Assembly (NCBI GenBank): GCA_030697505.1
Contig: JAUYPX010000026.1
Span: 53,322 to 117,321, forward strand
DNA length: 64,000 nucleotides
From: Nanobdellota archaeon
Lineage (GTDB): Archaea; Nanobdellota; Nanobdellia; Woesearchaeales; GW2011-AR9
Direction: 5' to 3'
Below, in pieces: positions 3,934-63,983 of this stretch. How positions within the stretch are numbered: position 1 is the first letter of the stretch; the number at the start of each line of letters is the position of its first letter. The notes below the pieces were generated by a model. That model was not told the DNA's origin and ran no database searches. It was given only the letters and a program-made list of their open reading frames with translations. Made by a program: the position numbers and the translations under genes.

Positions 3934-5194
3934 TCCGTTTCTCTACCCAAACCGGTTTCTTTAACTTCCAAGTTCCATCCGCAAATTCCCAGAGATTCTT
4001 ATTGCGAAACTTTTCAATACACTCCAAAAACCGTCCCTCGGTTATGCCCAGGTAGTCAAGGAAATCCTGGAAATACTTTTTAGGAAACTCCTGATCAAAC
4101 TTTTTAACTAAAGCGACTGCTTCTTCGCGGGTAATTTTATTGTTCCGGCATTCCTGTGCGGCATCATAAGTAGCCCGGCCGATCCCAAATTTGACTAATT
4201 GTGTATAATAATGGAAAGGATCGCTTTTATCATCGATGCTGCTATACTTGGAGTAAGACCCTTCCGTACGTTCGGTGTTTGCCTCAAATCCTATATGCTC
4301 CACCGCATAATAATACGCTTCCTGAGGATCCCATTTAACATACCATCCTAAATAATGGACTTGAATACCTTTTTGATCATACTCTTCTGGATCGATGGGA
4401 AGATATGCTTTTAGGTCAGTCATGCTAGCTCCGTGCTTTTCAATTAATTCCTTTATCGGAACTCCGCCTAAACACATCTTGTCATAATCGGCGCCAGTAT
4501 GATAATGTTTTTTGCGTTGCGCCCCATCATTTCCTGGGTCGCCATAATCAACTCCTGGTTCTCCATAAAAGACCAGAGGGATATCGAACTTAGCGGCAAT
4601 CTTAGGCGCCAGGTTCTTCTGCCCTAAAATAAACGGTTGGAACGGATGCAATAAATTTTCAAATGCCAGTTTAGTCAAGAGTTTATGCACTTTCCCATTT
4701 GGATGAAAAAGAATATTATCAAACCCTGCACCAATCCAATGCTGCATATTTCGCCAACCTACTTCAGTATACATGTGCGGAGCCCAGGTTACGGTGAGAG
4801 GATTCATTTTATATTTATATTTTAACAAGTGAGCTACCATCACGCTATCCTTGCCGCCGCTGCCGGAAACAATACAATCGTGCGACCCATCGCTCTTTCT
4901 ATATTTGTCGCATAAATCCCATAATAATTTCTCTCGTTCCTGCCAATCGATTTGATTAGTTTTTTTTTCATGATACCGACAGGCCGCGCATACTCCCGTC
5001 TCATCAAAATCAATGGTCTCTGTTGCCGAATTAGAATTATGTTTAAATTCGGATTTCTTGGCTAAAGGCCGCTGATTAGAGATGATGCATTTCGTGCAGT
5101 ATTTGACCTCCCGTGGTAATCCGTAAGGAACATCTACTACCTCAACTTGTTCTGTTTGTTGATGGTTTACATCTTCTAATCTATTTTCTGCCAT
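3923..5194 (-). CDS. N-acetyl sugar amidotransferase (WbuX/WbpG/PseA/AglX family; PP-loop ATP pyrophosphatase)
   Basis: N-terminal Cys pairs (CTKCIISNQRP...CAACRYHEKK, zinc-ribbon) precede the PP-loop IVSGSGGKDSVMVAHLL. It sits next to HisH/HisF paralogs, the canonical WbuXYZ/AglXYZ arrangement. Confidence 0.75.
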   Translation of the reverse strand: MAENRLEDVNHQQTEQVEVVDVPYGLPREVKYCTKCIISNQRPLAKKSEFKHNSNSATETIDFDETGVCAACRYHEKKTNQIDWQEREKLLWDLCDKYRKSDGSHDCIVSGSGGKDSVMVAHLLKYKYKMNPLTVTWAPHMYTEVGWRNMQHWIGAGFDNILFHPNGKVHKLLTKLAFENLLHPFQPFILGQKNLAPKIAAKFDIPLVFYGEPGVDYGDPGNDGAQRKKHYHTGADYDKMCLGGVPIKELIEKHGASMTDLKAYLPIDPEEYDQKGIQVHYLGWYVKWDPQEAYYYAVEHIGFEANTERTEGSYSKYSSIDDKSDPFHYYTQLVKFGIGRATYDAAQECRNNKITREEAVALVKKFDQEFPKKYFQDFLDYLGITEGRFLECIEKFRNKNLWEFADGTWKLKKPVWVEKRNDE

Positions 5195-5203
5195 TTTTCC
5201 ACC

Positions 5204-6703
5204 TCATGCATTAGCAAATAAATTGAGCATATCTAATCCAAATTCCCCGCTTTTTTCAGGATGAAACTGGCATCCATAGATGTTTCCTTTTTTAAAAACG
5301 GCGCAGAATTTTTGTCCACCATACTCAGTGGTAGCCAACACCGTGCCCTGATCATCCGGGACGAGGTAATAGGAATGGATAAAATAAACTTTGGTATTCA
5401 AAGGAGTGTCGCCTAAAATAGTATTGCTCCAAGCCAGGCTTGATGCCGGAGTAAGAGTATTCCACACCACATGCGGTACACGGTAACCTTTGACAGCAAC
5501 TTCTTGCGGTTTCTTGAATCCGACCACTTTTCCTTTGACGATATCTAAACCTTGATGCCTTCCAAATTCTTCACTTTCACTCAATAATAATTGCGCGCCT
5601 AAGCAGATCCCTAAGAGCGGCTTTCCTGAGGCGACATACTCTTTTATCGCTGACGCCAGTCCGCGTTTCTCGAGCTGGGCCATGCCTTCTCCATATGCGC
5701 CTACTCCTGGCAATACCAAATGTGTCGCCTCTTTAACTTCCCAGGAAGCACAGACTATTTTAACCTGAGCTCCAATCTTTTCAAAGGCGCTAATCACGCT
5801 CATGATATTTCCAACACCGTAATCGATGATCGAAATCACCTTTCCTTTTTTCTTCTCATGATTTTTAACTTCTCCTTTTACGGATTCATGATTTTTTCTA
5901 AAAGATAGGTTCGTTTTTTCCTTTTCCAATGCAGTTTTAATTTCAGGGAGGGTAGACTTTTTGTAATGCAATATCGAGCCCACGGCAACCGCATCACAGT
6001 TTGTTTCTATTGCACATTTTACCACGTGCTGCGGATTTCCTGCGCCGCCAGAAGCAATAATTGGAACAGACACTAATGTTGAAATTTTCTGCATCAATTC
6101 AAGGTCATAACCAGATTCGCAGCCATCTCTATCTACAGAAGTGATAAGCAGCTCGCCTGCTCCCAGTTCCACCAGTTTTACTGCCCACTCCACCGCATCC
6201 AAACCGGTCCTTTCCCGGCCATTGTCTACATACGCTTCCCATTTTTGAGGGCCTATTTTTTTAGCTTCGATGGAACCAACAATGCATTGTGAACCAAATC
6301 TCCTCGCCGCTTCCGTGATCAATTCAGGTCTCCGAGTAGCGGCAGTGTTTATAGCAACTTTATCTGCGCCCGCATGCAACAGCTCCTGAATATCTTCCAG
6401 TTTTCGTACCCCGCCGCCTACGGTCATGGGCACATACACGCCTAAGGAGATCGCTTCTTTTACCACATTCGATAAATTATTTCGCCCATATAAACTGGCC
6501 ACGATATCAATATATAAGATTTCATCGGCGCCTTGCTCATAATATTGTTTCGCTAATTCCGCCGGTTTTCCCACTACTCGCAGGCCTTCTAACCTGAGTC
6601 CCTTTACAACGTTAGAACCTTTAACATCCAACCTAGAAATAATCCGTACATTCCTCATGAAAATACCACTATAACGGGTGTTTTTAAAGATTATGATATC
6701 CAA
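5204..6703 (-). CDS. Fused imidazole-glycerol-phosphate-synthase paralog. HisF-like cyclase/ammonia-channel domain is N-terminal and HisH-like class-I glutamine amidotransferase is C-terminal (WbuZ-WbuY-like).
   Basis: N-terminal half has IISRLDVKGSNVVKG, DEILYIDIVAS, PMTVGGGVR, GAGELLITSVDRDGC and PIIASGGAG (HisF). C-terminal half has IIDYGVGNIMSV, LVLPGVGAYG, GICLGAQLL and QFHPEKS (HisH catalytic Cys/His). Confidence 0.85.
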   Translation of the reverse strand: MDIIIFKNTRYSGIFMRNVRIISRLDVKGSNVVKGLRLEGLRVVGKPAELAKQYYEQGADEILYIDIVASLYGRNNLSNVVKEAISLGVYVPMTVGGGVRKLEDIQELLHAGADKVAINTAATRRPELITEAARRFGSQCIVGSIEAKKIGPQKWEAYVDNGRERTGLDAVEWAVKLVELGAGELLITSVDRDGCESGYDLELMQKISTLVSVPIIASGGAGNPQHVVKCAIETNCDAVAVGSILHYKKSTLPEIKTALEKEKTNLSFRKNHESVKGEVKNHEKKKGKVISIIDYGVGNIMSVISAFEKIGAQVKIVCASWEVKEATHLVLPGVGAYGEGMAQLEKRGLASAIKEYVASGKPLLGICLGAQLLLSESEEFGRHQGLDIVKGKVVGFKKPQEVAVKGYRVPHVVWNTLTPASSLAWSNTILGDTPLNTKVYFIHSYYLVPDDQGTVLATTEYGGQKFCAVFKKGNIYGCQFHPEKSGEFGLDMLNLFANA

Positions 6704-7610: not shown

Positions 7611-8279
7611 CTAAGGCCATGACAGGAGGATCTTGCGAAGATCAGTGAAATTTTCGACTATGAAACTTATTTTTGATTTATCTGCCTTTTCCATCTCACC
7701 TAAACCCCAGCCAACCAGGATCATCTTGGTGCCCAGCTTATGGGAAGCCTCAATGTCCGTAGCAGTGTCGCCGACATAATAGTTTCCCTCAAAATCATGC
7801 GGCAAAAAATGTTCTACCAAACGCTGGTATTTTCTATCAGCATGACTCTGCCCAACGGGAACTGGACCGGTAAAGATCACTTTTGAAAAAAAATCTGAAA
7901 TTCCCAAATTTTTCAGCTGATTTACACTATTGTTGATATTATCTCTTAGAGATAGAAGCACTAATTCATATTTTTTTTCCTGCAGCTCAGCTAGGAGCGG
8001 CCGTACTGATTGATGCAGCCTATCCATATCTAGATATCTGCTTTCTTCAAGAATAGAATTTCTATACTGCTTAAAATTAATGATTCTATCTGAAGAGAGA
8101 TGATATTCTTGCACTAATATCTGAGCATCTTTTATCCCTTTCCTTTTAAGATGGAGATATTTTTCTTTGGAGAGGGGAGAAATATTGATCGCTGCACAGC
8201 ATTCACAAAAAACAGCATAATATCGTTCACTTATATCGATGAGCGTGCCATCAAAATCAAAAATTATTTTTTTTCCCAT
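7611..8279 (-). CDS. HAD-superfamily hydrolase/phosphatase
   Basis: N-terminal DxDGTL motif (IIFDFDGTLID). A C-terminal GD..D motif is likely (YVGDTATDIEAS). Confidence 0.7.
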   Translation of the reverse strand: MGKKIIFDFDGTLIDISERYYAVFCECCAAINISPLSKEKYLHLKRKGIKDAQILVQEYHLSSDRIINFKQYRNSILEESRYLDMDRLHQSVRPLLAELQEKKYELVLLSLRDNINNSVNQLKNLGISDFFSKVIFTGPVPVGQSHADRKYQRLVEHFLPHDFEGNYYVGDTATDIEASHKLGTKMILVGWGLGEMEKADKSKISFIVENFTDLRKILLSWP

Positions 8280-24650: not shown

Positions 24651-26513
24651 TTATGTATTAATTATGTCTTCCATTATTTTGCCAGTTTCTGTCGGATCCA
24701 ATACCTCATAAATAGTCACATCTTCATCTTGATACCTTACTACTGCAAATGTAGATATATCTCTTTGCATCAGCTGCTTTTCATAAGGGCCGATGATAAT
24801 GTAATCTAACTTAAAAATAGGAGTTAACTCTTCCCAATTTACCGGTAAGGCGTGATAAGAATCTTTAATCTTCTGTTTAAATTCTGGCGGCATATAACAT
24901 CCAGTATTTGAAAAGAAAGCCTCGAAGGTGATGAGAGAAGAAACTGTCTCTTCATAAGTTGAATAATTGAATTCTTTTTTTCCCCCTTCGAGATACTGTT
25001 TTAAACTATCTCGAGTAGAAGGACAGGGCTTATGTAAGAATACAAAGTTTTCTGTCGAAACATTAAGAAGCCGATATGCTACTAATCTTCGCATTATAAC
25101 TTCTGAAATTGAAACTGATTCTCCTCGAGCACTAGGCACGTAGTTCTGGTTATGTGTATATATGGGAACTAAAAGGATCACATCCGAACTTAAGGTTAAG
25201 ACCACCTCATCAGGATCAGTATTCTCTGTTAGCCACGTAAACGCGTTCCGCTGGTAATCAGGAAGAGAGTAAGAGGAGTACATAGTTGTAGCAAATGCCA
25301 CCTGCCAAATAAGCCCAAATAAAAGGAAGAAAATCATAATCATTATTGGAAACTTCTGTACCATCTTTATCTTGGTTTGGCTAGACCATAAACTCATAGC
25401 ATGAACTATAGTCAAGATCAGTACCGGCCAAACCGCAGCCGAGAGCCATTGCCGATGATCGAGCGAATAGCCGGTTAATACTTGTATATTCATAACTGCC
25501 AGGCTGGAAAATAACAAAGTGATTATAAAGAAAAAATTTTCCTTAGATTGTCCTAATTGTTCAACTCTTTTGTATGAGTAGTAACTATAACCTATGTAAA
25601 AGGCCGCCACGACTAATAAAAGCGCCGAATAAGGTAGGTCTGGAAAGTGGGTAAATTTTGCTCCACTTAATCTAAGAAGCAGAGCTGTTTTCTCGCCCAA
25701 ATTATGGCGTGTAAAAAGTAAAAAATTAGTTATTCCAAAGGAGAACACAATTAATAAATAAGTCCCTATTTTCAATAGGCTATTTTTTCTCAGAACCGTA
25801 AAAGTAAGTAATAAAATTATGATGGCCATGACGGCATAGACAGTCCAATAATAGAAATAAGTAAAAAACAATAAGCCGCCGCTTATACCGCTCAAGAATA
25901 CATATTTCCATTCTCTCTTCTGAAGTAAAAGTAATAAGAATAACAAAGCTAAAGCAAAGATAATAAAGTTAAAAAGAACCGGATAAAATCGAGAAAAATA
26001 TCCTATCGGCTGAGCAATTTTATGGGTTAGGAAATAAAACAGGTTGGTTGCGGGGAAATATAACAGCGGCGCAGCCATGCAAGAGATTTTTTTATTTGAA
26101 GTTAATCGAAAAGCAATTGCATACACTAATAATGAGCCTATGAAAGGGAATATGAAAAAAGAAAAAATGTATATTGGTGTAAGCCCGCCTAAAATTATAC
26201 CTAAGCCTCCTAAAACCATGGCTGGCAAAGGTCCTGCGTGAGAAGGAATTGTTTTGTCCTGCCATTCCCATATTGTAGACCTTGGAATCAAGTGCCCTTC
26301 TATAACATCATGCACATAACCAGCATAAAGCGCCTCATCAGTTAATCTACCGCCAACACCCTTCACGACAAGCGGTAAATATTCTACGCCTTCGTCTTGA
26401 AGTAGAGGTATCAGTATATGCGGTAAGAAAAAAATACTTCCAACTAGAAAAGCCACTAATATTCCATAACGATGTTCTAAAATTACTTTTAATATTTTAT
26501 TAACAGATTTCAT
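24651..26513 (-). CDS. Polytopic membrane protein, PMT_2/ArnT-like GT-C glycosyltransferase candidate, paralog A
   Basis: About 14 TM helices. First-loop acidic motif TDEALYAGYVHD plus SHAGPLPAMVLGG (hPPL-like), as in GT39/GT83. Paralog of 32685..34541. Confidence 0.45.
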   Translation of the reverse strand: MKSVNKILKVILEHRYGILVAFLVGSIFFLPHILIPLLQDEGVEYLPLVVKGVGGRLTDEALYAGYVHDVIEGHLIPRSTIWEWQDKTIPSHAGPLPAMVLGGLGIILGGLTPIYIFSFFIFPFIGSLLVYAIAFRLTSNKKISCMAAPLLYFPATNLFYFLTHKIAQPIGYFSRFYPVLFNFIIFALALLFLLLLLQKREWKYVFLSGISGGLLFFTYFYYWTVYAVMAIIILLLTFTVLRKNSLLKIGTYLLIVFSFGITNFLLFTRHNLGEKTALLLRLSGAKFTHFPDLPYSALLLVVAAFYIGYSYYSYKRVEQLGQSKENFFFIITLLFSSLAVMNIQVLTGYSLDHRQWLSAAVWPVLILTIVHAMSLWSSQTKIKMVQKFPIMIMIFFLLFGLIWQVAFATTMYSSYSLPDYQRNAFTWLTENTDPDEVVLTLSSDVILLVPIYTHNQNYVPSARGESVSISEVIMRRLVAYRLLNVSTENFVFLHKPCPSTRDSLKQYLEGGKKEFNYSTYEETVSSLITFEAFFSNTGCYMPPEFKQKIKDSYHALPVNWEELTPIFKLDYIIIGPYEKQLMQRDISTFAVVRYQDEDVTIYEVLDPTETGKIMEDIINT

Positions 26514-29649: not shown

Positions 29650-29658
29650 GGGATCCCC

Positions 29659-29910
29659 TCAAAATTGTTTATAATATTTCTCACGCTCTTGTTTTTTGAT
29701 ATTGAGATCGGACCAATAAGAATTTACTTTTTTAGAAGTTTTTCTTTCCAGGAAATGTTTTCCAAAAATACGTGCAACGAAAGAAGTAAGACCTACTCCC
29801 ACCAGGTATACCAGGAGCAAGAGCATGGTATTTACAAAGGCAGTGATTTTTTCTCCAAACCCTTTCATGCCCTTCCCTACCGATTTCAAGAATAGTTTTG
29901 CCGCAGTCAT
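29659..29910 (-). CDS. Small membrane protein (83 aa) in a conserved-looking trio next to the carbamoyltransferase
   Basis: One central TM (LLLLVYLVGVGLTSFVA). 4-bp overlap with the next small ORF. Confidence 0.35.
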   Translation of the reverse strand: MTAAKLFLKSVGKGMKGFGEKITAFVNTMLLLLVYLVGVGLTSFVARIFGKHFLERKTSKKVNSYWSDLNIKKQEREKYYKQF

Positions 29911-30110
29911 AATACAAACTTTTGAATAAGACCTCCCAGAGCGGCGACGATCAAGATCGCTGCGAATACTTTCAGAAGAGCGGAAGTGGAATACGAAATC
30001 TTCCCTAATGAAGTGAGAATGTAAAACACTATCAAGGAAGACAAAATATAGCTGATGAAAAATCCTACTTTTACTCCTACTTTTTCAAGAGAGGAAGTAT
30101 GCATGTTCAT
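29907..30110 (-). CDS. Small two-TM membrane protein (67 aa)
   Basis: Two hydrophobic helices. Translationally coupled to the neighbouring small ORFs. Confidence 0.35.
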   Translation of the reverse strand: MNMHTSSLEKVGVKVGFFISYILSSLIVFYILTSLGKISYSTSALLKVFAAILIVAALGGLIQKFVL

Positions 30111-30166
30111 AAACTCTCTTTAACTTGATTTCTTTATAAATTTTTAGAAACAAGGGCATAAATGAT

Positions 30167-30382
30167 CTAGAAAAGAGCATAAATGAATGGCGAGATAGCG
30201 CTGCTTTGTCCAAAGATTATCAAAACGCCCACAAAGACGAGCATGATTATAATGGGAGTAAGCCACCAGGCTTTCCGTTCCTTTAAAAAGTCCCAAATCT
30301 CAGCTAGAAATGATTTATTTCCTTCCATCTTACCGTAAAAAAGAGAGGTTATTTTTAAACGTTTCGACTCCGCGCAACTCAT
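30167..30382 (-). CDS. Small membrane protein (71 aa) with a KxWW..PII motif, DUF5989/SxtK-like by recollection
   Basis: LKERKAWWLTPIIIMLVFVGVLIIFGQSSAISPFIYALF is a pattern I recall from short proteins that co-occur with carbamoyltransferases. Confidence 0.4.
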   Translation of the reverse strand: MSCAESKRLKITSLFYGKMEGNKSFLAEIWDFLKERKAWWLTPIIIMLVFVGVLIIFGQSSAISPFIYALF

Positions 30383-32684: not shown

Positions 32685-34541
32685 CTATTTATCTACCTTG
32701 TAAACGGTAAATTCGGCGTTGCTATACACTAGCTGAGCATAGTCTTCTATTTCACGATGAGAAATGTTTTTTTCATAAGGACCCAAAATAATGTAATTAA
32801 CAACGTATCTGTGGGTTAATTGCTCCCACTCTTCTGGAAGATTGGCATATGTTTTGAAAACTCCTTCTCTGAAATCCTTGGGAATGGTGCATCCTTTACT
32901 TCTGGGAAATGATGCCTCAAAAGTGAGAAGATGGGAAAATGCTTCTTCAAATAAAGAAGAATTATATTTCCCATCCTTAGTGCGTTCAAAACTCATCATT
33001 TCACTAAAAGCGCAAGGATTATTGAGAAATAGGATGTTTTCCTCGGAAACGCCCAACAGTTTATAAGCGATCAATCTTCGTGCGATTATTTCTGGAATGG
33101 GAATCGGTTCTACCACTGCATTGGGTATAAAATTATTGTTGTGAGTATAAACTGGAACAAGGAGGACCATTTCCGAGCTTAACGAGAGGATCACTTCATC
33201 TTTTGCAGTATGGTGGTTCAGCCATTCAAATAATTCTACTTGAGGACCAGAAAGTGTGTACACTGAGTAAGTATTATAAGAAAATGTTACCTGCCAAATA
33301 AGTCCAAATAAGAGCAGTAAGCCGATAAAGATAAAACTTGAGGATTTAATTATTTCTTTCAAAATCTCTCTTTTGAAAAATTTTTTTTCTGTAAAATTCA
33401 AAATATATATCCCTGCCAGAACCAGTGCCGGCCATATAGCTGTGGTCAACCAATGGCGAGGATTGATAGTGTACCCCATAATCACTTGCACATTCATGGC
33501 AACTATTCCTGCAAAAATTAGTATCAGCAGAAAATAAAAACTAGTTTCATTCTTTTCTTCTTTATTATTTCTGTCTTCAGACCTTTCAGATCTTTCACAA
33601 GCAGCGTATGTTAATACTATCACTATACTCAGAAGGAAAAGAGTTATGGGCCAATCTGGACTTCTAGTAAAGATAGGGTTAAGCCGGTGTAGTATTTCAG
33701 CCCGGTTAGCAATGGTGCTAATTGAGTTCAAGAAAAACGTTGTTCCTATTACTGCAGTTACTAGCCCAGATAAGGTTATTTTTTTGAACAGAGTAAAATC
33801 TTTTCTTAAAAGAGAGGTTATCCATATCAAACTTATAAAAATTATGTAAAAAGTCCAATAATAAAAATAGGTGTAAAACAATAATCCTCCTAAAATTCCG
33901 CTGATGAGAGCAGCTTTCCATTTCTGTTTCTTTAAAAGCCACCAAACCGCAAGCAAAGTTATAGCAAAAATAGGAAAATCTACTAAAACTGGATAAAAGC
34001 GGGAAAAGTAACTTATAGGTTGAACAATCTGATCGTTGAAGAATTTAAGCATATAAGTGGGAGAAAAGAACAGCAAAGGAGGAGCGATAAGAGAGAGCGT
34101 TTTGTTTTTAGTCAGCAGATATGAAAGGGCATATATCAATAATGAGCCTATGAAGGTAAAAAAGAAATAAGAAAAAATATAGGTGTTTACCACTCCACCC
34201 AATAACCAGGACATCACTCCTAAAATAAGGGAAGGAAAAGGAGAACCTGCATGCGATAAGATCGAAGTATCTTTCCATTCTAGGATATTAGAACGGGGGA
34301 TGAGATGCCCTTCTGCTGCTTCCTGCACATAGGCAGCGTAAAAAACTTCATCAACGCCTCGTGCATCCACACCTTTCACCACCAGAGGAGAATATATCCT
34401 AGAATCCTCCTGGAGCAAGGGAATGAGCAAGCTAGGCAAAAGAAAAATAAGCCCAATCAGCAATGATACTATTAATGCCGCTCGATGTTCCTTTATCTTT
34501 TTGTAATGATGGTGCAATCGTTCTTTCATTTTTATAAACAT
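32685..34541 (-). CDS. Polytopic membrane protein, PMT_2/ArnT-like GT-C glycosyltransferase candidate, paralog B
   Basis: N-terminus parallels 24651..26513 (LPSLLIPLLQEDSRIYSPLVVKGVDARGVDEVFYAAY...SHAGSPFPSLILGV). Confidence 0.45.
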   Translation of the reverse strand: MFIKMKERLHHHYKKIKEHRAALIVSLLIGLIFLLPSLLIPLLQEDSRIYSPLVVKGVDARGVDEVFYAAYVQEAAEGHLIPRSNILEWKDTSILSHAGSPFPSLILGVMSWLLGGVVNTYIFSYFFFTFIGSLLIYALSYLLTKNKTLSLIAPPLLFFSPTYMLKFFNDQIVQPISYFSRFYPVLVDFPIFAITLLAVWWLLKKQKWKAALISGILGGLLFYTYFYYWTFYIIFISLIWITSLLRKDFTLFKKITLSGLVTAVIGTTFFLNSISTIANRAEILHRLNPIFTRSPDWPITLFLLSIVIVLTYAACERSERSEDRNNKEEKNETSFYFLLILIFAGIVAMNVQVIMGYTINPRHWLTTAIWPALVLAGIYILNFTEKKFFKREILKEIIKSSSFIFIGLLLLFGLIWQVTFSYNTYSVYTLSGPQVELFEWLNHHTAKDEVILSLSSEMVLLVPVYTHNNNFIPNAVVEPIPIPEIIARRLIAYKLLGVSEENILFLNNPCAFSEMMSFERTKDGKYNSSLFEEAFSHLLTFEASFPRSKGCTIPKDFREGVFKTYANLPEEWEQLTHRYVVNYIILGPYEKNISHREIEDYAQLVYSNAEFTVYKVDK

Positions 34542-37439: not shown

Positions 37440-39437
37440 TTAATTCACCTTAAATAAAACTACATTTTCATTAGAGTAAATAGGCGTTAACTTAGTTGAA
37501 GTTAAAAATTCCTGGTAGCGTACCGGAAGCATAGCTTTTACCTCATCTTGGCCAAATTTATCGCTTAAATATTTATAATCCATATTTTTATTGATCATAA
37601 AATATTCATAATTATTGCTTAGTAGGAAAGAATATAACTCATCGTGATTTTTATAAATAATCTCCTTTCTGAAGTCCTTTACCTCCTGGCACCAAGAGCA
37701 GCTAAACCGGCCATACCCAAATACTAGCTTGTCGCGAGGCGCATATAGAAATACCTTGGAATTAAGAGGAATTTGCTTAAAAAGCTCAGCATACAGAAAT
37801 GGTTCCTGCGCGTTAGAGAACGATCCGGAAGTCGGCCAGATAGAAGTATTAGCTTCATATTTGTGCACCCCAGAAGTTAAGATCGCCCCTGCCACTATAA
37901 GCATAGTAAGAGCTACTTGCAACAACTTATTTTTCTTAAAGGTATTGATAAAAACGTAAGTTCCTTCTGCCGCTATAATAGAAACCGGAATCGCCAGCAA
38001 AAACCAGGCTCTAAACGCATCTCGAGCTATGGAAATCGGAAAAGTCATCCCGTTTACCACCCAGAAAGTATAGATCAGCCAAAACAGGACCACTATCCTC
38101 CAACAATTTTCTTGAGAGACTAAAGAAGAACGGTATTTGAAGACTAGATACGCTAATCCAAATAAAGCCAGGATACTAAGAACAACACCTATTCCTATCG
38201 GAGCATTTATCATATTATTTGATTTTGCCACAAAAAAATCTCCAAAGGTATATGCTCTTGATCCTGATCCTCCAGGATGAGTTATAGCTTTAATTACGGA
38301 GAAAAATTTTCCAAAGAAGCTAAACCCCGCAGTATTAGCCACAGCTTCCACACTTGAATTTGAAACCATGGTCTCTCGAAGTGCAACCGGCACCCTCACA
38401 TAGGCACCAATAAAAAATTGTAAAGAATATTTATGTATCATCGCCATCCACCAAAACAGAGAAAGAACCATCCCGCCAAAAATCCCTGCAACGTGATATT
38501 TCAAAAAACGATAGTGGACAACTGATGCTACCAATGCATAAATCAAGAGCATAGTGGTAAGTTTAATCGGTTGGGAGAGATTCTGGGTTACCCAGATGCC
38601 CGCGACCATCACTGCTAAGATTAAAGCCCATTTTTTATTTTCAAATGTCTTGTTAAAGGCATACAGGGCTGGAAAAAGAAGAGTAATGGTCATAGAGTGA
38701 GCCCAAATAAAATGGGAAAGATAGGAAGGAATAACTGCTAAGAAGAAAGTAGCGGCAAGAGCCTTGGTTTTATTCTGCATAAAACTATTCGCAAAAAAAT
38801 AAAAGAAAAAGAATCCTAAAGAAATAATCAAGGCATTAAAGAACTTTATAGTCCAATTAAGGTCTTGGGAAGTTTGGTGTAAAACACCCATCAGAACATC
38901 ATACGCAGGAGGATAGGGATCGATGTAGGAAAAAAATGACTCCGTTTCCTGAGCAGTAGTAGTAATTGGATTATATGCATCTTTGTGGAGAGCAACATAT
39001 TTAACTCCAACAGAATGTCCCCAGGGATCTTCATCTTCAAGATAAGGATAGGCAAAAGCTCCTGAAGCATAGACATAAAGAGAAACTGCAAAAATCAGTA
39101 AAACTGCAGCAACAAAAAGATTGCTTTTAGTTAAGGTTGGCTTAGGGATTTTGGTCGGAAATTTGAAACCATGCTTCTTACAGATTGTAAATCCTGCATA
39201 TAGTGGAACAATCAAGCTCAACAGGAGGAAAATTTTCCAATCTAAAGGAATGCGAAAAAAATTAATGATTATGGAAAGGATGGCAAATACGCCCAGGCCA
39301 ATTCCTATATTCATAATATGCCGCTCAAAAAGATCAGCTTTTGGATTTGCAGATTTAGAATATATAAAATAAGTAAGAGAAAAGCCAAAACCCCAAAGAT
39401 AAATGAAAAATAATAATATGGTTATAACGCTTATCAT
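37440..39437 (-). CDS. Large polytopic membrane protein, PMT_2/ArnT-like GT-C candidate
   Basis: YPYLEDEDPWGHS acidic loop motif and PYPPAYDVLMGVL (hPPLyy-like). 665 aa. Confidence 0.45.
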   Translation of the reverse strand: MISVITILLFFIYLWGFGFSLTYFIYSKSANPKADLFERHIMNIGIGLGVFAILSIIINFFRIPLDWKIFLLLSLIVPLYAGFTICKKHGFKFPTKIPKPTLTKSNLFVAAVLLIFAVSLYVYASGAFAYPYLEDEDPWGHSVGVKYVALHKDAYNPITTTAQETESFFSYIDPYPPAYDVLMGVLHQTSQDLNWTIKFFNALIISLGFFFFYFFANSFMQNKTKALAATFFLAVIPSYLSHFIWAHSMTITLLFPALYAFNKTFENKKWALILAVMVAGIWVTQNLSQPIKLTTMLLIYALVASVVHYRFLKYHVAGIFGGMVLSLFWWMAMIHKYSLQFFIGAYVRVPVALRETMVSNSSVEAVANTAGFSFFGKFFSVIKAITHPGGSGSRAYTFGDFFVAKSNNMINAPIGIGVVLSILALFGLAYLVFKYRSSLVSQENCWRIVVLFWLIYTFWVVNGMTFPISIARDAFRAWFLLAIPVSIIAAEGTYVFINTFKKNKLLQVALTMLIVAGAILTSGVHKYEANTSIWPTSGSFSNAQEPFLYAELFKQIPLNSKVFLYAPRDKLVFGYGRFSCSWCQEVKDFRKEIIYKNHDELYSFLLSNNYEYFMINKNMDYKYLSDKFGQDEVKAMLPVRYQEFLTSTKLTPIYSNENVVLFKVN

Positions 39438-60952: not shown

Positions 60953-61692
60953 CTTTCATACACCTTTTTTGCTTCTTCTAACGATTCAAATGTTCCTACA
61001 TCAAACCAATGCTCGTCAAAAACAAACCCATGCACTTCTGATTGTTCTGCCAGATATCTGATCAAATTGCCTGGCGCGTCCACTTTTCTTGTTTTTACTA
61101 AATTTCTAATATGGCGTAAATCATCTCTTTTAAAAAAATAGCAAGCGGTGCTGGCCAGGCTGCTTTTCGGTTCTGCTGGTTTCTCTTCAAAATCGATCAC
61201 TTTACTTCCTTCCACTATACCTACTCCATATTTGCCTTTCACTTTATTCTTATCTTTCAGATCATGGAAAGCCACTACTGAAGAATTCTTGTTCTTGAAA
61301 AAATCAGTGAAAGCAAGCAACGAAAAACCAAACAGATTATCTCCAGCTATGACTAAGAGATCCTCGTTAATATTTTCCTGTTGAACTGCAAATTGAATGT
61401 CGCCGATCGCGCCCAAGCGATCCTCATTGCTTTTTGTGCCATCATTGAGTATTTTTAATTTAAATGGCGTTTTGATATTCTTAACCCAACTAGTAAAAGC
61501 AGGATAAAATTTATCATTGGTGACAACATACACTTCTTTGACATTCTCGACTTCTTCCAATTTATCTAGAATATGGTTGAGGATAGTTTTTTCACCTACT
61601 TTCAATAGAGGTTTTGGCGTGTTTTCTGTTAAAGGGTATAGACGTGTGGCATATCCCGCAGCAAGTAGTAAAACCCTAATTTTTACCACCAC
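60949..61692 (-). CDS. Sugar-1-phosphate nucleotidyltransferase (short NTP-transferase)
   Basis: LLAAGYATRLYPLTENTPKPLL signature. 247 aa. Confidence 0.8.
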   Translation of the reverse strand: MVVKIRVLLLAAGYATRLYPLTENTPKPLLKVGEKTILNHILDKLEEVENVKEVYVVTNDKFYPAFTSWVKNIKTPFKLKILNDGTKSNEDRLGAIGDIQFAVQQENINEDLLVIAGDNLFGFSLLAFTDFFKNKNSSVVAFHDLKDKNKVKGKYGVGIVEGSKVIDFEEKPAEPKSSLASTACYFFKRDDLRHIRNLVKTRKVDAPGNLIRYLAEQSEVHGFVFDEHWFDVGTFESLEEAKKVYER

Positions 61693-61793
61693 CTACTAAA
61701 ACCAATACTTCCATAGGATAAAACAAAAGAAAATGCTTTAAAAGTATTATGGAAGAGGAGTTTTACTGAGAATAAAGATAAAAGTCGTTGCTC

Positions 61794-61838
61794 GTGGAAC
61801 TGAACGTAGAGAAGTTCCACTTGACAGAATTTTGGTTC
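61794..61838. repeat. 45-bp direct repeat, copy 1, containing an internal palindrome TGGAAC...GTTCCA
   Basis: GTGGAACTGAACGTAGAGAAGTTCCACTTGACAGAATTTTGGTTC is identical to 61925..61969. Confidence 0.9.
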
Positions 61839-61924
61839 TGCAGCCAGTTACACTAGGCGAATCGTATTCAAGTAGGGTATTCGCGTGGCTCAACCCTACG
61901 ATATTTTAATGAATTACGTTGATT

Positions 61925-61969
61925 GTGGAACTGAACGTAGAGAAGTTCCACTTGACAGAATTTTGGTTC
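61925..61969. repeat. 45-bp direct repeat, copy 2
   Basis: Perfect copy of 61794..61838, 131 bp downstream. Confidence 0.9.
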
Positions 61970-61984
61970 AGCTTTTTTCGCTTA

Positions 61985-62145
61985 GGCGCAAAAAAGATGA
62001 GTGGACAGCTTACCGGGATTCCCGCACGCTAATGCAGTACTGCCCCAGTACGGAGACGCTCTTAACTTCCGAGATCGAAACGGGATCGGGTGAACCGCGC
62101 CCCTATGGCCGTCCGAGAGATTCAATTGGGGGCTTATTTATAAAG
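61985..62145 (+). ncRNA. Candidate structured noncoding RNA or regulatory leader of unknown class
   Basis: A local GC-rich (>55%) island in a roughly 40% GC locus. Several stems: perfect palindrome GCAGTACTGC, CGGGA/TCCCG, and GCCCC...GGGGGC followed by a TTATTTAT run. The only ORF (93 aa) has atypical CG-rich codons. Confidence 0.3.
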
Positions 62146-62198
62146 ATTACGATTACTTTTTCATAACGATTTAAAAATCAAAGATAAACTAGGCTAAT

Positions 62199-63983
62199 GT
62201 GATCGACACAGCAATTATCATCGCCGGGGGCTTAGGGACTAGACTTAGGCCTCTCACCGAATCTACCCCAAAACCATTACTGCCCATACGGGGAAAACCA
62301 ATAATAGAGCACGTCATCAGGAATCTTAGGAAGCATGGAATCACTAATATCATCATTTCTATTGGATATAAAGCTGACCAAGTACAGGAATATTTCAAAG
62401 ATGGCAGCTCTCTCGGGGTAAATATCTCCTATTCCCTGGAAACTCAACCTCTAGGCACAGGAGGGGCAGTAAAACAAGCCTCAAAATTCCTTTCCAAACC
62501 TTTCTTCTTGCTCTGGGGTGATAATCTCATGGATATCAATATCTCCAAAATGAAAGAAGATTACCTCAATTATAACGCCGCTATACTTATGGCTCTTACT
62601 CATCGTGAGGATGTGGAAAACTTTGGGGTAGCCAAATTAGAACAACATAAGATCATCACTTTTGTAGAAAAACCGAAACGGGAAGAAGCTCCTTCTACCT
62701 TGATAAATGCCGGCGCTTTTATTGTTGATCCCTCTTGTTTGCAGCTTCTTCCAGAAGGGATATCCTCATTAGAGAAAGATTGTTTTGAGAAGCTTGCTCC
62801 GCAGGGAAAAATCGCCGCGCACATCCATCAAGGGCAGTGGTTTCCTACCGACACTTTGGAGAAATATTATTGGGCTAATACTGCATTTCAGCCTGATATC
62901 TATCTGCAAGAAAAGAAAGTGATCATCGCCGATGTCGATGACACTATCTGCGAAACTTGCCAGCAGATCTCTTCGGAGATGGCGGAACAGATTTCTCGGA
63001 TGATCAGACAAGGATATGAATTTGCCTTCATCAGCGGCACCAAAAGTGAAGACCTTCAGAAGATGATTTCCTCCAGAGTGAAAGAAAAACATCATCTTCT
63101 CGCTACTACCGGAACAAATTATTCCATCATCGAAAAAGATACCGTAAATGTCATATACAATAATTCCTTTAGCCAGGAAGAAAAAGAAGAGATTATGGCT
63201 GCCTTACAAAAACTTATCTCCAACTACGGGATTATCTCTTTAACTACCCCGGAAGATCAGCTCCAAGACCGAGAATCTCAGATCACTTTATCAGCTATCG
63301 GTAGAAATGCGCCGATAGAGGTTAAAAAGAAGTACGACCCTTCTGGAGAAAAACGCAAGGTCTGGACAGAATTCCTTAAGAAACATCTCGATGAAAATAA
63401 ATATGATCTTAAAATTGGCGGAACTACTTCCATCGACATCACTCGGAAAGGCTTAGATAAGGAATGGGGAATTAAAACCTTCGCAGAGCATCATAAAATA
63501 CCTCTAAATTCTATTGTCTTTATAGGAGATAAGATTTTTCCCGGAGGAAATGACTTCCCGGCAACCAGGATTGTAGACTGCATCTCCGTAAAGTCGCCTC
63601 AAGAAACATTGCAACAGCTGCGAAAAATAGAAATCTTAAGCAGAATCATCATCTCAGAAAGACCTTGGGGAGCATTTGAACGATTTACCGCAAACCAGAT
63701 CAGCACGGTCAAAATACTGGAAGTAAACCCGCAGCAGCGCCTTTCCTTGCAGTCGCATCAGCATCGGGAAGAATTATGGATCGCTCTTGATGATGGAGTG
63801 ATAGCCGAGATAAATGGAGTAAAACTATATCTCAAAAAAGGGGATAAGATAGTGGTTCCAAAAGAAGCCAAACACCGGCTCTCTTCCGAGAGCGGAACTG
63901 TCCGGGTCTTAGAGATAGCCTTCGGGAACTTTGATGAGAATGACATTACTCGCTATGAAGATGATTTTGGCAGAATGAAATAA
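62199..63983 (+). CDS. Trifunctional fusion: sugar-1-P nucleotidyltransferase, HAD-type phosphatase (PMM-like) domain, and type-II phosphomannose isomerase cupin (ManC-like)
   Basis: N-terminus AIIIAGGLGTRLRPLTESTPKPLLPI. The middle has HAD motifs (IIADVDDTICE...FIGDKIFPGGND). The C-terminal cupin has WGAFERF...LSLQSHQHREELWI...GDKIVVPKEAKHRL. Confidence 0.75.
   Translation: MIDTAIIIAGGLGTRLRPLTESTPKPLLPIRGKPIIEHVIRNLRKHGITNIIISIGYKADQVQEYFKDGSSLGVNISYSLETQPLGTGGAVKQASKFLSKPFFLLWGDNLMDINISKMKEDYLNYNAAILMALTHREDVENFGVAKLEQHKIITFVEKPKREEAPSTLINAGAFIVDPSCLQLLPEGISSLEKDCFEKLAPQGKIAAHIHQGQWFPTDTLEKYYWANTAFQPDIYLQEKKVIIADVDDTICETCQQISSEMAEQISRMIRQGYEFAFISGTKSEDLQKMISSRVKEKHHLLATTGTNYSIIEKDTVNVIYNNSFSQEEKEEIMAALQKLISNYGIISLTTPEDQLQDRESQITLSAIGRNAPIEVKKKYDPSGEKRKVWTEFLKKHLDENKYDLKIGGTTSIDITRKGLDKEWGIKTFAEHHKIPLNSIVFIGDKIFPGGNDFPATRIVDCISVKSPQETLQQLRKIEILSRIIISERPWGAFERFTANQISTVKILEVNPQQRLSLQSHQHREELWIALDDGVIAEINGVKLYLKKGDKIVVPKEAKHRLSSESGTVRVLEIAFGNFDENDITRYEDDFGRMK

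Follow-up and report, generated by a model that had tools for sequence, protein, structure and literature searches.

Archaeal bulge-helix-bulge (BHB) introns interrupt structural RNA genes, the exons of which rejoin into the canonical structure, and in tRNA genes they occur at non-canonical positions as well. In Thermoproteales, different tRNA genes carry similar introns at different sites, and this has been read as the outcome of intron transposition at the DNA level (Fujishima et al. 2010, as summarised in PMC4090602), and the mechanism of archaeal intron transposition is stated as unknown (PMC4090602). The integration of mobile elements has been proposed as the origin both of tRNA introns and of scattered gene fragments (Sugahara et al. 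2012, PMC3293823).

The stretch of DNA analysed here (64 kb, referred to as the window) comes from a MAG of Nanoarchaeota (DPANN). The closest relatives of a flanking protein are encoded by MAGs of Nanoarchaeota or Ca. Nanoarchaeia, and its own record reads 'MAG: Nanoarchaeota archaeon'. Between two divergent NDP-sugar genes, the window carries a 5S rRNA gene and two identical 45-bp repeats, CE1 and CE2. Judging from the sequence, CE is a previously undescribed short hairpin element, which belongs to a wider, lineage-specific family, E. No description of E is found in the literature on DPANN 5S insertions, K-loop sRNAs and Nanoarchaeota T-loop introns. E resembles BHB introns at non-canonical positions in that E-like cores lie in two tRNA genes of one related genome (L006), each with a predicted BHB, and it resembles the transposed introns (PMC4090602) in its several RNA-gene sites and its patchy presence. 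In contrast to BHB introns, the copies in the window and most other copies are located in the 3' flank of the RNA gene, one of them inverted; the hosts of E include 5S and another small RNA, Y, and not only tRNAs; splicing of E is a prediction; and the lineage of E is DPANN rather than Thermoproteales. Interruption of a structural RNA gene, which defines BHB introns, is found only for the related copies in L006 and not for the window copies.

Other known systems are matched in part. The RNA-gene fragments derived from mobile elements (Sugahara et al. 2012, PMC3293823) have a counterpart in a 20-nt duplicate of the 3' end of the target gene in the related loci L054 and L064. The identical 45-bp direct repeats are like the att sites of archaeal integrative elements, but neither a recombinase gene nor a kilobase-sized element lies between them, and their sequence is either constrained or very young. 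As in the LAGLIDADG cassettes of archaeal rRNA genes, a LAGLIDADG_3 ORF (L060) or its remnant (L004) abuts or overlaps the 3' end of 5S, at the site that CE occupies elsewhere, and this fits a cycle of invasion and decay; CE, however, lacks an ORF and does not detectably resemble the cassette, and the window has no such gene. The hairpin of CE on the + strand can end, like a K-loop or K-turn, in a U-A pair followed by tandem G·A/A·G and a 7-nt loop, but unlike the L7Ae-bound K-turn RNAs (box C'/D', H/ACA upper stems), CE has no guide regions, and its motif lies on the strand antisense to the intron. K-turns have tandem sheared G·A/A·G pairs beside a helix with a 3-nt bulge or loop. The features of the locus are listed in Table 1.

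Table 1. Features of the intergenic region and its flanking genes (positions in the window)
Feature	Position	Strand	Basis
Sugar-phosphate nucleotidyltransferase gene, 247 aa	60949..61692	-	Pfam NTP_transferase, E 3.9e-34
Putative promoter block of the NTP-transferase gene, TATA CTTTTAAAGC	61735..61766	-	Conserved block
CE1 (repeat copy 1)	61794..61838	-	CM R1, 77.2 bits
X (spacer element)	61839..61901	+	Diverged E-family copy, inverted relative to CE
CE2 (repeat copy 2)	61925..61969	-	CM R1, 82.5 bits
HP, hairpin T6-CGC-TTAG-GCGC-A6	61973..61995		Sequence, folds
5S rRNA gene, full length	62000..62116	-	Rfam RF00001, 64.7 bits, E 2.6e-11
Candidate TATA box of 5S, TTTATAAATA	62135..62144	-	Centre ~24 nt upstream of 5S 5' end; sequence
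TATA-like box TTTAAAAAT	62170..62178	+	~25 nt upstream of GTG start (62199) of the 594-aa gene
594-aa fusion gene: NTP_transferase, HAD/PMM and mannose-6-P isomerase cupin domain	62199..63983	+	Pfam

The first-pass annotation had pointed to a GC-rich island in this region, and the island is real, with a GC content of 0.58 at 62000-62099 against 0.3-0.45 around it. It had been offered as a structured leader or ncRNA, which is right in kind, because the island is a 5S rRNA gene on the opposite strand. The Rfam search suggested there returns this gene as its sole match in the 64 kb, and the match spans positions 1-120 of the RF00001 model, whose gathering threshold is 38 bits. No 16S, 23S or tRNA gene is detected in the window by Rfam or, for tRNA, by ARAGORN. 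The 5S gene is an ordinary, unlinked stand-alone gene, and there is nothing unusual in the window copy. It matches the covariance model over its full length and has its own TATA box, an oligo-T stop and a position that is conserved in relatives. An orthologous 5S gene is present at the same place in all eight closest genome relatives (L002-L009; 60.8-73.8 bits), where it sits just upstream of the 594-aa gene; 5S sequence is visible also in L060-L075, the position is kept in 17 related genomes, and the 594-aa gene is syntenic with 5S in every relative that shows both. The 5S genes of some relatives (L060, L071) have internal insertions, unlike the window copy.

A block, TTATTTATAAA / TTATTTAAAAA, is located at a conserved distance from 5S in relatives. 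Its TATA box probably serves as the promoter of 5S, as the geometry of archaeal promoters suggests, and 5S appears to be transcribed from this box and to stop at a T6 run. The A6 of HP (61990-61995) is this T6 terminator on the minus strand, 4 nt past the 3' end of 5S, and the T6 of HP (61973-61978) would stop transcripts of the + strand. HP is conserved jointly with CE, both beside 5S and beside the Y RNA gene, and plain 5S loci without CE have T-runs only. As the T6 run lies between 5S and CE, co-transcription of the two needs read-through. The short inverted repeats listed in the first-pass annotation are all in the sequence, but several of them belong to the 5S gene or its promoter: GCAGTACTGC and GCCCC are within the gene, GGGGGC and its 'T-run' are just upstream of it, and the 'T-run' is part of the TTATTTATAAA TATA region. 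The spacer with GCGAAT..ATTCGC and TAGGGT..ACCCTA folds no better than shuffled sequences (z -0.8 and -1.2).

The sugar genes appear to have promoters of their own, and the GC-rich structured segment between them is explained by a 5S rRNA gene that lacked annotation. On the side of the NTP-transferase gene, the block GNTTTAAAAGNATTNTGGAAGAGGNNTTTTAC (N is a variable position) is conserved in L005, L007, L060, L061 and L067, regardless of whether CE is present, and probably functions as a promoter. On the side of the 594-aa gene, the block TTTTTCATAANNNTTTAAA is conserved in relatives, and the mRNA of this gene is probably leaderless, given the distance of the TATA-like box from the start codon. 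The region is, to a first approximation, the only long noncoding stretch in the window; three small membrane-like ORFs fill the other gap that separates large ORFs (29650-30382).

The two identical direct repeats described in the first-pass annotation are confirmed. The 45-mer GTGGAACTGAACGTAGAGAAGTTCCACTTGACAGAATTTTGGTTC (+ strand) occurs exactly twice, 131 bp apart from start to start, with 0 occurrences expected by chance, and no third copy is found at 3 or fewer mismatches. The similarity is longer than 45 bp and amounts to 56 nt at 95% (61786-61841 versus 61917-61972). The palindrome is present, but the length of its spacer has to be corrected: it is GTGGAACT-N11-AGTTCCAC, that is, TGGAAC-N13-GTTCCA and not TGGAAC-N11. 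In an independent Logan assembly (run SRR13727529), the sequence is broken 30 nt inside each end of the repeat, where a k=31 graph breaks at a true repeat. None of 185,579 species-representative genomes contains the 45-mer in exact form, indicating that its spread is narrow. CE2 is located where relatives have their single copy, directly after HP and the 3' end of 5S, and, in analogy to the copies in tRNA introns, the 5S strand is taken as its 'sense' strand. CE1 keeps the ancestral left flank TTGCTCG, and its right flank is X where HP would be. CE1, X and CE2 are all flanking DNA outside the intact 5S gene; none is inside an RNA gene or a BHB motif, and folding reveals no evident hBHBh' motif around them.

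A single CE+HP directly follows the 3' end of 5S in L002, L005, L007, L009, L054, L056, L059/L064 and, in degenerate form, L067, so that CE is present at 9 of the 17 orthologous 5S loci and absent from the other 8 (L003, L004, L006, L008, L060, L061, L071 and L072). The same CE+HP module follows the Y RNA gene in four contigs (L050, L051, L052 and L057). Y RNA is a small RNA gene of ~105 nt, unrelated to 5S, and neither it nor the GC-rich stretch L057 4950-5243 has an Rfam match at E <= 10. CE follows 5S whatever gene lies beyond, be it the NTP-transferase gene, an APH-family gene or unrelated ORFs. CE tracks RNA genes rather than NDP-sugar genes, and the result comes close to what the first-pass annotation had set against its own proposals, a dispersed repeat family with no positional link to the sugar genes. 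E units are arranged in tandem in L052, and an insertion in L057 comes with a partial second HP. In L054, L059 and L064, 20 nt of the 5S 3' end are repeated on the distal side of X. Contigs frequently break at CE or at the 5S end.

Identity to the window is 82-98% for CE, 89-95% for 5S and 92-95% for X (in L054 and L059/L064), while the adjacent gene has reached saturation at its four-fold sites (identity 0.29-0.45). CE is thus conserved as well as 5S despite saturated synonymous sites. Against mobility, conservation of CE at the level of 5S fits a host function as well as a recent spread.

The layout of E consists of an 'M1' motif (GCGCCUAAGCGAA or ACACUAGGCGAA), a linker, UGUCAAG, a covarying hairpin of 7-8 bp and CGAGCAA, and CE1 and CE2 are identical copies of its hairpin half. 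The 86-bp spacer between them contains a third copy of E, X, which is diverged and inverted. X comprises the motif ACACTAGGCGAA (61850-61861), TTCAAG and the hairpin GTAGGGT (61872-61878) / ACCCTAC (61893-61899), and is matched by an nhmmer profile at E 1e-21. X aligns with the intron of the L006 tRNA-His gene with a score of 37, against 13.1±2.1 for shuffled sequences, and with L050 6830-6891 (L050b) with a score of 36; the L006 intron aligns with L050b with a score of 40, and none of 2000 shuffles reaches any of these scores. The L006 intron aligns also with CE, with a local score of 22 against 12.7±2.0 (3/2000 shuffles). Because direct similarity between X and CE is not significant (score 13 against 12.9±2.1), their kinship rests on the L006 intron as a bridge. 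The covariance model R1 matches L006 7685-7734 with 28.6 bits (E 1e-3), and a profile of X and the intron matches the CE sites in the predicted orientation (E 0.14-0.26) and finds the second intron copy as well.

The stem of E is supported by the covariation analysis that had been recommended for related loci. In CE alone, 99.1% of the stem cells are paired and one pair changes from C:G to U:A (8 versus 6 sequences). Over the family, 96.4% of the cells are paired and compensatory changes are found in 4 of the 7 pairs (19 cells), which is equalled by 0 of 500 shuffles. In each of the wobble-type exceptions (3/3), the G·U pair forms on the strand that is antisense to the intron; this bias is not significant, and it points against the intron-sense strand.

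The E-like cores of L006 are inside predicted T-loop (58/59) introns of a tRNA-His gene and a tRNA-Ser-like gene. The minimum-energy fold of L006 7649-7818(-) contains the acceptor stem, the anticodon arm and the T arm (GGGAG/CUCCC) of tRNA-His, with two 3-nt bulges at the T arm that are separated by a 4-bp UUCG/CGAA helix. The predicted fold of the tRNA-Ser-like gene, L006 7937-8156(+), has the same BHB geometry, and the bulges predicted by minimum-energy folding around the UUCG/CGAA helix are AUU/AGU or AU/AGU. The orthology of the tRNA-His gene is confirmed by its synteny with the PRTase and HisRS genes. Its orthologues in L078, L079 and L080 have no long T-loop insert and that in L077 has a different intron of 43 nt, indicating that E was gained in one lineage. 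E is also found as a stand-alone copy behind a TATA box.

The E-like copies are thus located at different sites (5S, Y, tRNA-His, the tRNA-Ser-like gene and a stand-alone site), and their presence varies among relatives, as it does in mobile families. This distribution points to E as a mobile-intron-like (or miniature-repeat-like) repeat, which colonises stable-RNA genes and has been duplicated locally here, with a probability that we put at about 0.5. E would be a multi-copy selfish sequence, associated with small stable-RNA genes, the sites of which differ between genomes. It would be inserted at the DNA level in or beside highly expressed RNA genes and would be co-transcribed with its host gene. 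In the window genome, E would have been duplicated locally or re-inserted, and CE1 and CE2 may be identical either because they are recent copies or because gene conversion keeps them so. We infer the mobility of E, its co-transcription, the relevant strand and any function. No transposase, integrase or homing endonuclease is detected by Pfam in 46 of the 51 window ORFs, the remaining five, each of at least 150 aa, being located between 51348 and 56745. Nothing in the phage and plasmid collections matches the region, and among viral contigs a degenerate 20-nt core pattern has a single match, which appears to be fortuitous. Whether mobile or not, E combines conservation at the level of 5S between genomes with saturated synonymous sites, a covarying stem and absence from Rfam, and it links three settings that are usually treated separately: tRNA introns at non-canonical positions, sequences flanking rRNA and small-RNA genes, and a site at which a homing endonuclease has inserted. 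If E is mobile, it provides a concrete, sequence-defined case for studying the spread of archaeal BHB-type introns. That E is a new kind of ORF-less mobile parasite of RNA genes in DPANN is possible but doubtful. In this reading one sequence family could persist in two forms, within tRNA T-loops as a BHB intron that can be spliced out, and behind 5S and another small RNA as a 3' appendage transcribed together with them; the enzyme that mobilises it might act in trans, one candidate being the LAGLIDADG endonuclease at the 5S site that CE shares.

CE may instead be a small RNA of the + strand, convergent with 5S, that shares the T6-hairpin-A6 with it as a bidirectional terminator and has an L7Ae K-loop-like hairpin; the window would then carry two copies of its gene, the first of which is read through X. 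This is rather unlikely. The hairpin would be capped by a U-A pair and tandem sheared G·A/A·G pairs (5' CUGA, 3' RUGAAG), with ACA 3 nt later, an arrangement that may resemble an archaeal L7Ae-binding K-loop. The loop-closing UGA...GAA is nearly invariant in the 14 CE copies of alignment A1 and is seen by eye in the reverse complement of X, and 12 of the 14 copies have a K-loop-compatible sequence on the + strand, but the G·A pairs are broken in L056 and L067. Both G·U pairs of the CE stem (L009, L067) pair only on the + strand, as does one further case in the family, and the T6 run comes immediately after CE on this strand. CE+HP folds with a z of -1.9 on the + strand, but the minus strand folds better (z -3.45), and the two intron copies together with the 5S and Y contexts place the opposite strand in the transcribed sense. 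There is no TATA conserved at a fixed upstream distance, no C/D box and no pseudouridylation pocket, and a minus-strand ORF begins 8-30 nt from CE in L009, L056 and L002. The earlier suggestion of two paralogous small RNAs with a common 5' module is possible but unsupported: no promoter-like box lies at a fixed distance upstream of the copies, conservation begins abruptly at TTGCTCG, and the two tRNA-intron relatives are oriented oppositely. It is unlikely, too, that CE+HP is a vertically inherited host cis-element of stable-RNA units that was duplicated here by chance, either as the 3' module of a 5S or Y read-through transcript or as a termination or insulation device that shields neighbours from RNA-gene transcription. 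The constant position and orientation of CE+HP immediately behind the 3' end of the RNA at 13 loci of two RNA-gene types, the conservation equal to that of 5S, the RNA gene's promoter as the only conserved promoter in the block, and the T-runs that HP provides in both directions all agree with such a role. However, eight related 5S loci manage with plain T-runs and without CE+HP, the 5S strand lacks a U-rich tract after the CE hairpin, and the role makes no sense for the tRNA-intron copies or the inverted X.

An origin by site-specific recombination is quite unlikely. CE, X and the duplicated 5S end would then be att-flanking scars left by a plasmid or virus that integrates at the 3' ends of small-RNA genes and has since lost its interior, and the 45-bp identity would be att-like. 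Such an identity is typical of archaeal att cores. In L054, L059 and L064, X and CE+HP face each other between direct 20-bp repeats of the 5S 3' end, and the outer flank resembles a plain 5S terminator; PMC3293823 provides a precedent. However, no integrase is present at any locus examined and no viral or plasmid copy is found, the window copies enclose only 86 bp without a 5S fragment, and with synonymous sites saturated, neutral scars would be expected to have decayed. The remaining proposal goes back to the first-pass annotation and is very improbable: a dimeric transcription factor would bind the two repeats as paired sites and control the divergent NDP-sugar genes. The half-sites GTGGAACT and AGTTCCAC are palindromic and lie between divergent genes, but half-sites would not be expected to show symmetric compensatory changes or a conserved loop, TTGACA has no -10 partner, and the organism is an archaeon. 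The comparative data contradict this proposal, since the element follows 5S regardless of its neighbours, follows Y RNA in L050-L052 and L057, and is absent from L060 and L061, which have both sugar genes and the conserved TATA blocks.

Several other candidates are rejected. The TTGACA within the repeat is not a bacterial -35 element: 61500-62400 contains 0 sigma-70-like sites (-35 and -10 hexamers 16-18 nt apart) against 2.0 expected, and sigma-70 logic is inapplicable because the organism is an archaeon of the Nanoarchaeota. A pseudoknot of the loop CUGAAC with the downstream GUUCAG has 60.7% of its cells paired, no better than shuffles. X had looked like a decayed tandem copy of 5S in an alignment made by eye, but its global z is 0.5, its local score is 14 against 14.4±2.5 for shuffles and it has no Rfam match; the only real duplicate of 5S sequence is an exact copy of 20 nt from its end, located next to X in L054 and L064. 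A small ORF through CE (LVELNVEKFH(L/M)TEF...) has different C-termini at the 5S and Y loci, is frameshifted in L052, stops after TEF in L007 and L059 and has the T6 run within it, and the 93-aa ORF at 61885-62166 is simply antisense to 5S. CE is not a box C/D sRNA (C, RUGAUGA, and D, CUGA, with 10-12-nt guides) or an H/ACA sRNA (a pseudouridylation pocket and ACA after the lower stem): there is no C box on either strand, and ACA lies 3 nt past an 8-bp hairpin without a pocket. Rfam at E <= 10 adds only two chance snoRNA matches, both outside CE. A CRISPR array, with at least three regularly spaced repeats, unique spacers and usually cas genes, does not agree with only two copies, a 'spacer' conserved across species, single copies in relatives and no cas domain in the window ORFs checked. 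An att site of an integrative element is rejected by the 86 bp between the repeats and the lack of an integrase or transposase in 46 of the 51 window ORFs (Pfam). The defining features of a tRNA-like structure, a split-tRNA half, an integron attC, IS200/IS605 ends and an ORB or replication origin are not found where they are assessable from the sequence; TTCCACTTGACAG may resemble mini-ORB consensus sequences, and relatives are single-copy.

A 2026 survey describes order-level 'missing tRNA' patterns in Nanobdellota, and if E is a parasite of the kind outlined above, it would account for some of the 'missing' tRNAs in surveys of Nanoarchaeota genomes. ARAGORN misses both the tRNA-His gene and the tRNA-Ser-like gene with the T-loop introns, suggesting that tRNAs in DPANN genomes may be under-counted by gene finders.

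The GC-rich island seen in the first-pass annotation (0.58 GC at 62000-62099) is a full-length 5S rRNA gene on the minus strand (Rfam, 64.7 bits; gathering threshold, 38), which is already known biology. The Rfam search proposed in that annotation identifies 5S as the sole family reaching threshold in the 64 kb and assigns the repeats to no family. A permissive scan of 61600-62300 yields, besides 5S, only two chance snoRNA matches (E 7-9). The window contains no tRNA gene and no 16S or 23S match at the Rfam threshold, indicating that the 5S gene is unlinked. A candidate TATA element and a T6 run have the spacing expected of an archaeal promoter and terminator, and probably serve 5S as such. 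The supposed hairpins GCAGTACTGC and GCCCC lie inside 5S and GGGGGC just upstream of it, and the supposed T-run is part of the TATA region of its promoter. The 5S genes of two relatives contain internal insertions, of ~27 nt in locus L060 and of ~25 + ~32 nt in L071; one, at the same spot in both (loop C / helix III region), may be a mini-intron.

The 45-bp repeat element (CE) occurs, as first described, in exactly two plus-strand copies 131 bp apart. No third copy is found in the window at up to three mismatches (0 expected by chance), and the exact 45-mer has no match among 185,579 species-representative genomes. The similarity spans 56 nt at 95%, and each copy contains the 8-bp inverted repeat GTGGAACT-N11-AGTTCCAC. 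Two contigs of the independent SRR13727529 assembly carry identical flanking genes; in one, the first copy is cut off after 30 nt by the contig end, and the other opens with the last 30 nt of the second copy. These breaks inside the copies are expected of a k=31 graph, indicating that the repeat is real. TTGACA in the repeat is rejected as a -35 box because the organism is an archaeon; a sigma-70 scan gives 0 sites against 2.0 expected.

In 8/8 of the closest genomes, a 5S gene on the same strand closely precedes the ortholog of the 594-aa sugar gene that neighbours 5S in the window, and this layout is unchanged in further loci fetched via protein homologues. One CE, placed like copy 2 of the window, lies directly past the 5S 3' end in L002, L005, L007, L009, L054, L056, L059/L064 and L067 (degenerate in L067). 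It is accompanied by a hairpin module (HP) of the form T6-CGCTTAGGCGC-A6. In L003, L004, L006, L008, L060, L061, L071 and L072, 5S is present and CE is absent. In some loci a nucleotidyltransferase gene lies past CE; L064 has an APH-family gene there, and in L002, L009 and L056 unrelated ORFs begin 8-30 nt from CE. The TATA blocks of both sugar genes are conserved with or without CE, which removes the regulator-site reading. Thus, the proposal that the repeats are paired regulator sites for the NDP-sugar genes is contradicted, because the gene past CE varies and the promoter blocks are independent of CE.

When metagenomes are scanned for a degenerate pattern of CE, ten contigs match, six of which are 5S loci; Rfam finds 5S in five of them, and the sixth, L054, ends inside 5S. 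In the remaining four (L050, L051, L052 and L057), CE and HP lie, in every case, tail-to-tail with Y rather than 5S. Y is a GC-rich RNA gene of ~105 nt with its own conserved TATA (TTTATATATTAA) and T5 stop. Its long-range stem covaries (GGGGUCCC/GGGGCCCC in L050 versus GGAGCCCC/GGGGCUCC in L057), and it has no Rfam match at E <= 10.

A CE covariance model searched over the 468 kb of fetched loci recovers all CEs at 66-89 bits. Its only new match (28.6 bits, E 1e-3) falls inside a tRNA-His(GUG) gene of L006, on the other strand. Folded at minimum energy, this gene has an acceptor stem, an anticodon arm interrupted by a canonical intron of 13 nt and a T arm in which GGGAG/CUCCC is followed by UUCG/CGAA, a 4-bp helix flanked by two bulges of 3 nt. 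The predicted T arm is a textbook bulge-helix-bulge (BHB) motif around an ~86-nt insert at 58/59. Synteny with a phosphoribosyltransferase gene, and in L078 and L080 with HisRS as well, confirms the orthology of tRNA-His. ARAGORN calls tRNA-His in L078, L079 and L080, where the T loop contains no long insert; the T-loop intron of L077 is a different one, of 43 nt.

The L006 intron reads, in the tRNA sense, GCCUGCUACACUAGGCGAACGU-UGUCAAGUGGGAU-UUCAACA-AUCCCACGAGCAAGCC..., which is the reverse complement of a CE-like sequence with the motif ACACUAGGCGAA before it. Its architecture is matched by that of X, the spacer element between the two CE copies of the window (GCCAGUUACACUAGGCGAAUCGU-AUUCAAGUAGGGU...ACCCUACGA). 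The local score of X against the intron is 37 (shuffles, 13.1±2.1; 0/2000 reach it), and that of X against a stand-alone copy in L050 is 36 (0/2000). The intron scores 40 against the L050 copy (0/2000) and 22 against CE (shuffles, 12.7±2.0; 3/2000). X scores 13 against CE (shuffles, 12.9±2.1), which is not significant, but the intron is similar to both, and only this bridge makes X a relative of CE, in inverted and diverged form. A profile of X, the intron and the L050 copy matches the CE sites in the predicted orientation (E 0.14-0.26) and finds a second L006 copy. This copy, too, is a T-loop insert at 58/59; the host gene is tRNA-Ser(UGA)-like, and its predicted helix-and-bulge geometry is that of tRNA-His. 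ARAGORN calls neither of these two L006 genes nor the tRNA-His gene of L077, and the L006 tRNA-His gene scores only 13.6 bits with the Rfam tRNA model. Such genes could account in part for the 'missing tRNA' patterns that a survey describes in Nanobdellota (bioRxiv 10.64898/2026.05.13.725050). The wider family of CE, X, the intron cores and the L050 copy (E) has no Rfam family and no description in the searched literature; we file it as a previously undescribed variant of archaeal intron-type or miniature repeat elements. Three CE-less loci contain another conserved hairpin, CTTGTCCAC-N7-GTGGGACAAG, preceded by CCTTAGCCGAA; its likeness to the E motif is loose, and it is found on the opposite strand from 5S.

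For a baseline, the window and six relatives were compared in the 594-aa gene, whose four-fold degenerate sites are saturated (29-45% identity). The identity of relatives to the window is 82-98% for CE, 87% for HP, 92-95% for X and 89-95% for 5S. The values for CE and X, far above those of the saturated sites, suggest either constraint or recent spread. The CE stem is paired in 99.1% of cells among 14 distinct copies, and one pair switches between C:G (8 sequences) and U:A (6). Across the E family, 96.4% of the stem cells are paired, and 4/7 pairs show compensatory changes (19 cells; 0/500 shuffles reach it). A proposed CE pseudoknot, tested on the CE copies, is rejected. The spacer folds no better than shuffles (z -0.8 and -1.2).

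The order in L054/L059/L064 is an A-rich old terminator, a second, exact copy of the last 20 nt of 5S, X, CE facing X, HP and intact 5S; the window has no 5S fragment and instead a second CE on that side. L052 contains two tandem E units, the interior of the first being replaced. Between HP and CE, L057 carries a ~75-nt insert that includes an incomplete second HP; a GC-rich stretch at the end of this contig holds a further E-like hairpin, which is weak (UCAAGUGGGGC..GCCCCACGAUAA, E 0.36). In L060, a 242-aa LAGLIDADG_3 homing-endonuclease ORF, convergent with 5S and overlapping its 3' end by the last 10 codons, ends exactly where CE sits in other loci. At the same site in L004, only a 70-aa C-terminal remnant is left. 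Contigs often break at CE or the 5S end.

Coordinates of features in the window and in related loci (L handles)
Feature	Locus	Positions	Strand
CE, copy 1	window	61794-61838	+
X	window	61839-61901	+
CE, copy 2	window	61925-61969	+
T6 run, putative 5S terminator, 4 nt past 5S end	window	61995..61990	-
5S rRNA gene	window	62116..62000	-
Candidate 5S TATA TTTATAAATA, ~24 nt upstream of 5S start	window	62144..62135	-
594-aa fusion gene	window	62199-63983	+
Large ORFs without Pfam match	window	3923-5194, 24651-26513, 32685-34541, 37440-39437	-
Three small ORFs	window	29659-30382	-
tRNA-His(GUG) with T-loop (58/59) intron	L006	~7650-7816 (folded: 7649-7818)	-
CE-model match	L006	7685-7734	
tRNA-Ser(UGA)-like gene with T-loop (58/59) intron	L006	7937-8153	+
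Second E copy	L006	8075-8106	
tRNA-His with T-loop (58/59) intron	L077	~1655-1785	+
Stand-alone E copy	L050	6830-6891	
Y RNA gene	L050	~490-600	-
Y RNA gene	L051	~1085-1195	-
Y RNA gene	L052	~5240-5350	-
Y RNA gene	L057	~1460-1570	-
Tandem E units	L052	5093-5230	+
Insert between HP and CE	L057	1600-1715	-
Extra E-like hairpin	L057	5155-5190	-
LAGLIDADG_3 ORF	L060	2064-2792	+
LAGLIDADG_3 remnant	L004	3833-4045	+
5S gene with insertion	L060	2763-2905	
5S gene with insertions	L071	~2645-2830	
Other conserved hairpin	L003	~5720-5760	+
Other conserved hairpin	L006	~410-450	+
Other conserved hairpin	L071	~2565-2600	+

The descriptive core is solid: the island is a 5S gene, the repeats are copies of a multi-copy element that is conserved, structured and associated with small RNA genes, and the spacer is a related inverted copy. 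As to mechanism, we favour a mobile-intron-like selfish element. E would insert in or beside stable-RNA genes, would be transcribed together with the host gene, and would have been locally duplicated or re-inserted in this genome. This reading is favoured because two intron copies are in sense orientation, E is gained in a single tRNA-His lineage and is patchy at 5S, E borders on a second copy of the end of its target gene, tandem and inverted copies exist, and identity stays high relative to saturated neutral sites. As precedents, similar BHB introns in Thermoproteales are read as having spread at the DNA level, by a mechanism stated to be unknown (PMC4090602), and mobile-element integration is proposed to lead to intron gain and gene-fragment scattering (PMC3293823).

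The weaknesses of the mobile-intron-like reading are that no window copy lies inside any RNA gene, that a T6 run separates 5S from CE, and that the homology of CE and X is transitive only. In addition, no mobilising enzyme is found, Pfam giving no integrase, transposase or homing endonuclease among the 46/51 window ORFs of at least 150 aa checked. Less favoured rivals are att scars of an integrative element, a host module of the 3' flank of stable-RNA genes, such as 5S and Y, and a plus-strand K-loop-like small RNA convergent with 5S. Two G·U in the CE stem pair on the plus strand only, and CE+HP folds moderately better than shuffles on both strands (z -1.9 on plus, -3.45 on minus). A further weakness of the mobile-intron-like reading is that the few wobble pairs favour the strand opposite to the intron sense (3/3, not significant).

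The flanking genes encode a 247-aa nucleotidyltransferase (minus) and the 594-aa fusion of an NTP-transferase (nucleotidyltransferase), a HAD/PMM (phosphomannomutase-like) and a mannose-6-P isomerase cupin domain (plus). The latter gene is kept beside 5S across the lineage, in the related loci where it is seen. The nearest relatives of the protein (74-88% identical) are from MAGs labelled Nanoarchaeota or Ca. Nanoarchaeia; more distant ones are ~480 aa long, without the cupin domain. L003, L004, L006, L007 and L008 (61-78% identity to the protein) are labelled 'uncultured Methanosarcinales archaeon', probably wrongly, because their proteins and 5S loci group with Nanoarchaeota MAGs. A large cluster for glycans and NDP-sugars makes up the remainder of the window; within it, Pfam at E <= 1e-5 recognises none of four large ORFs of 423-665 aa. 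An apparent 730-bp gap between large genes is occupied by three consecutive small ORFs (83, 67 and 71 aa), which are hydrophobic and membrane-like.
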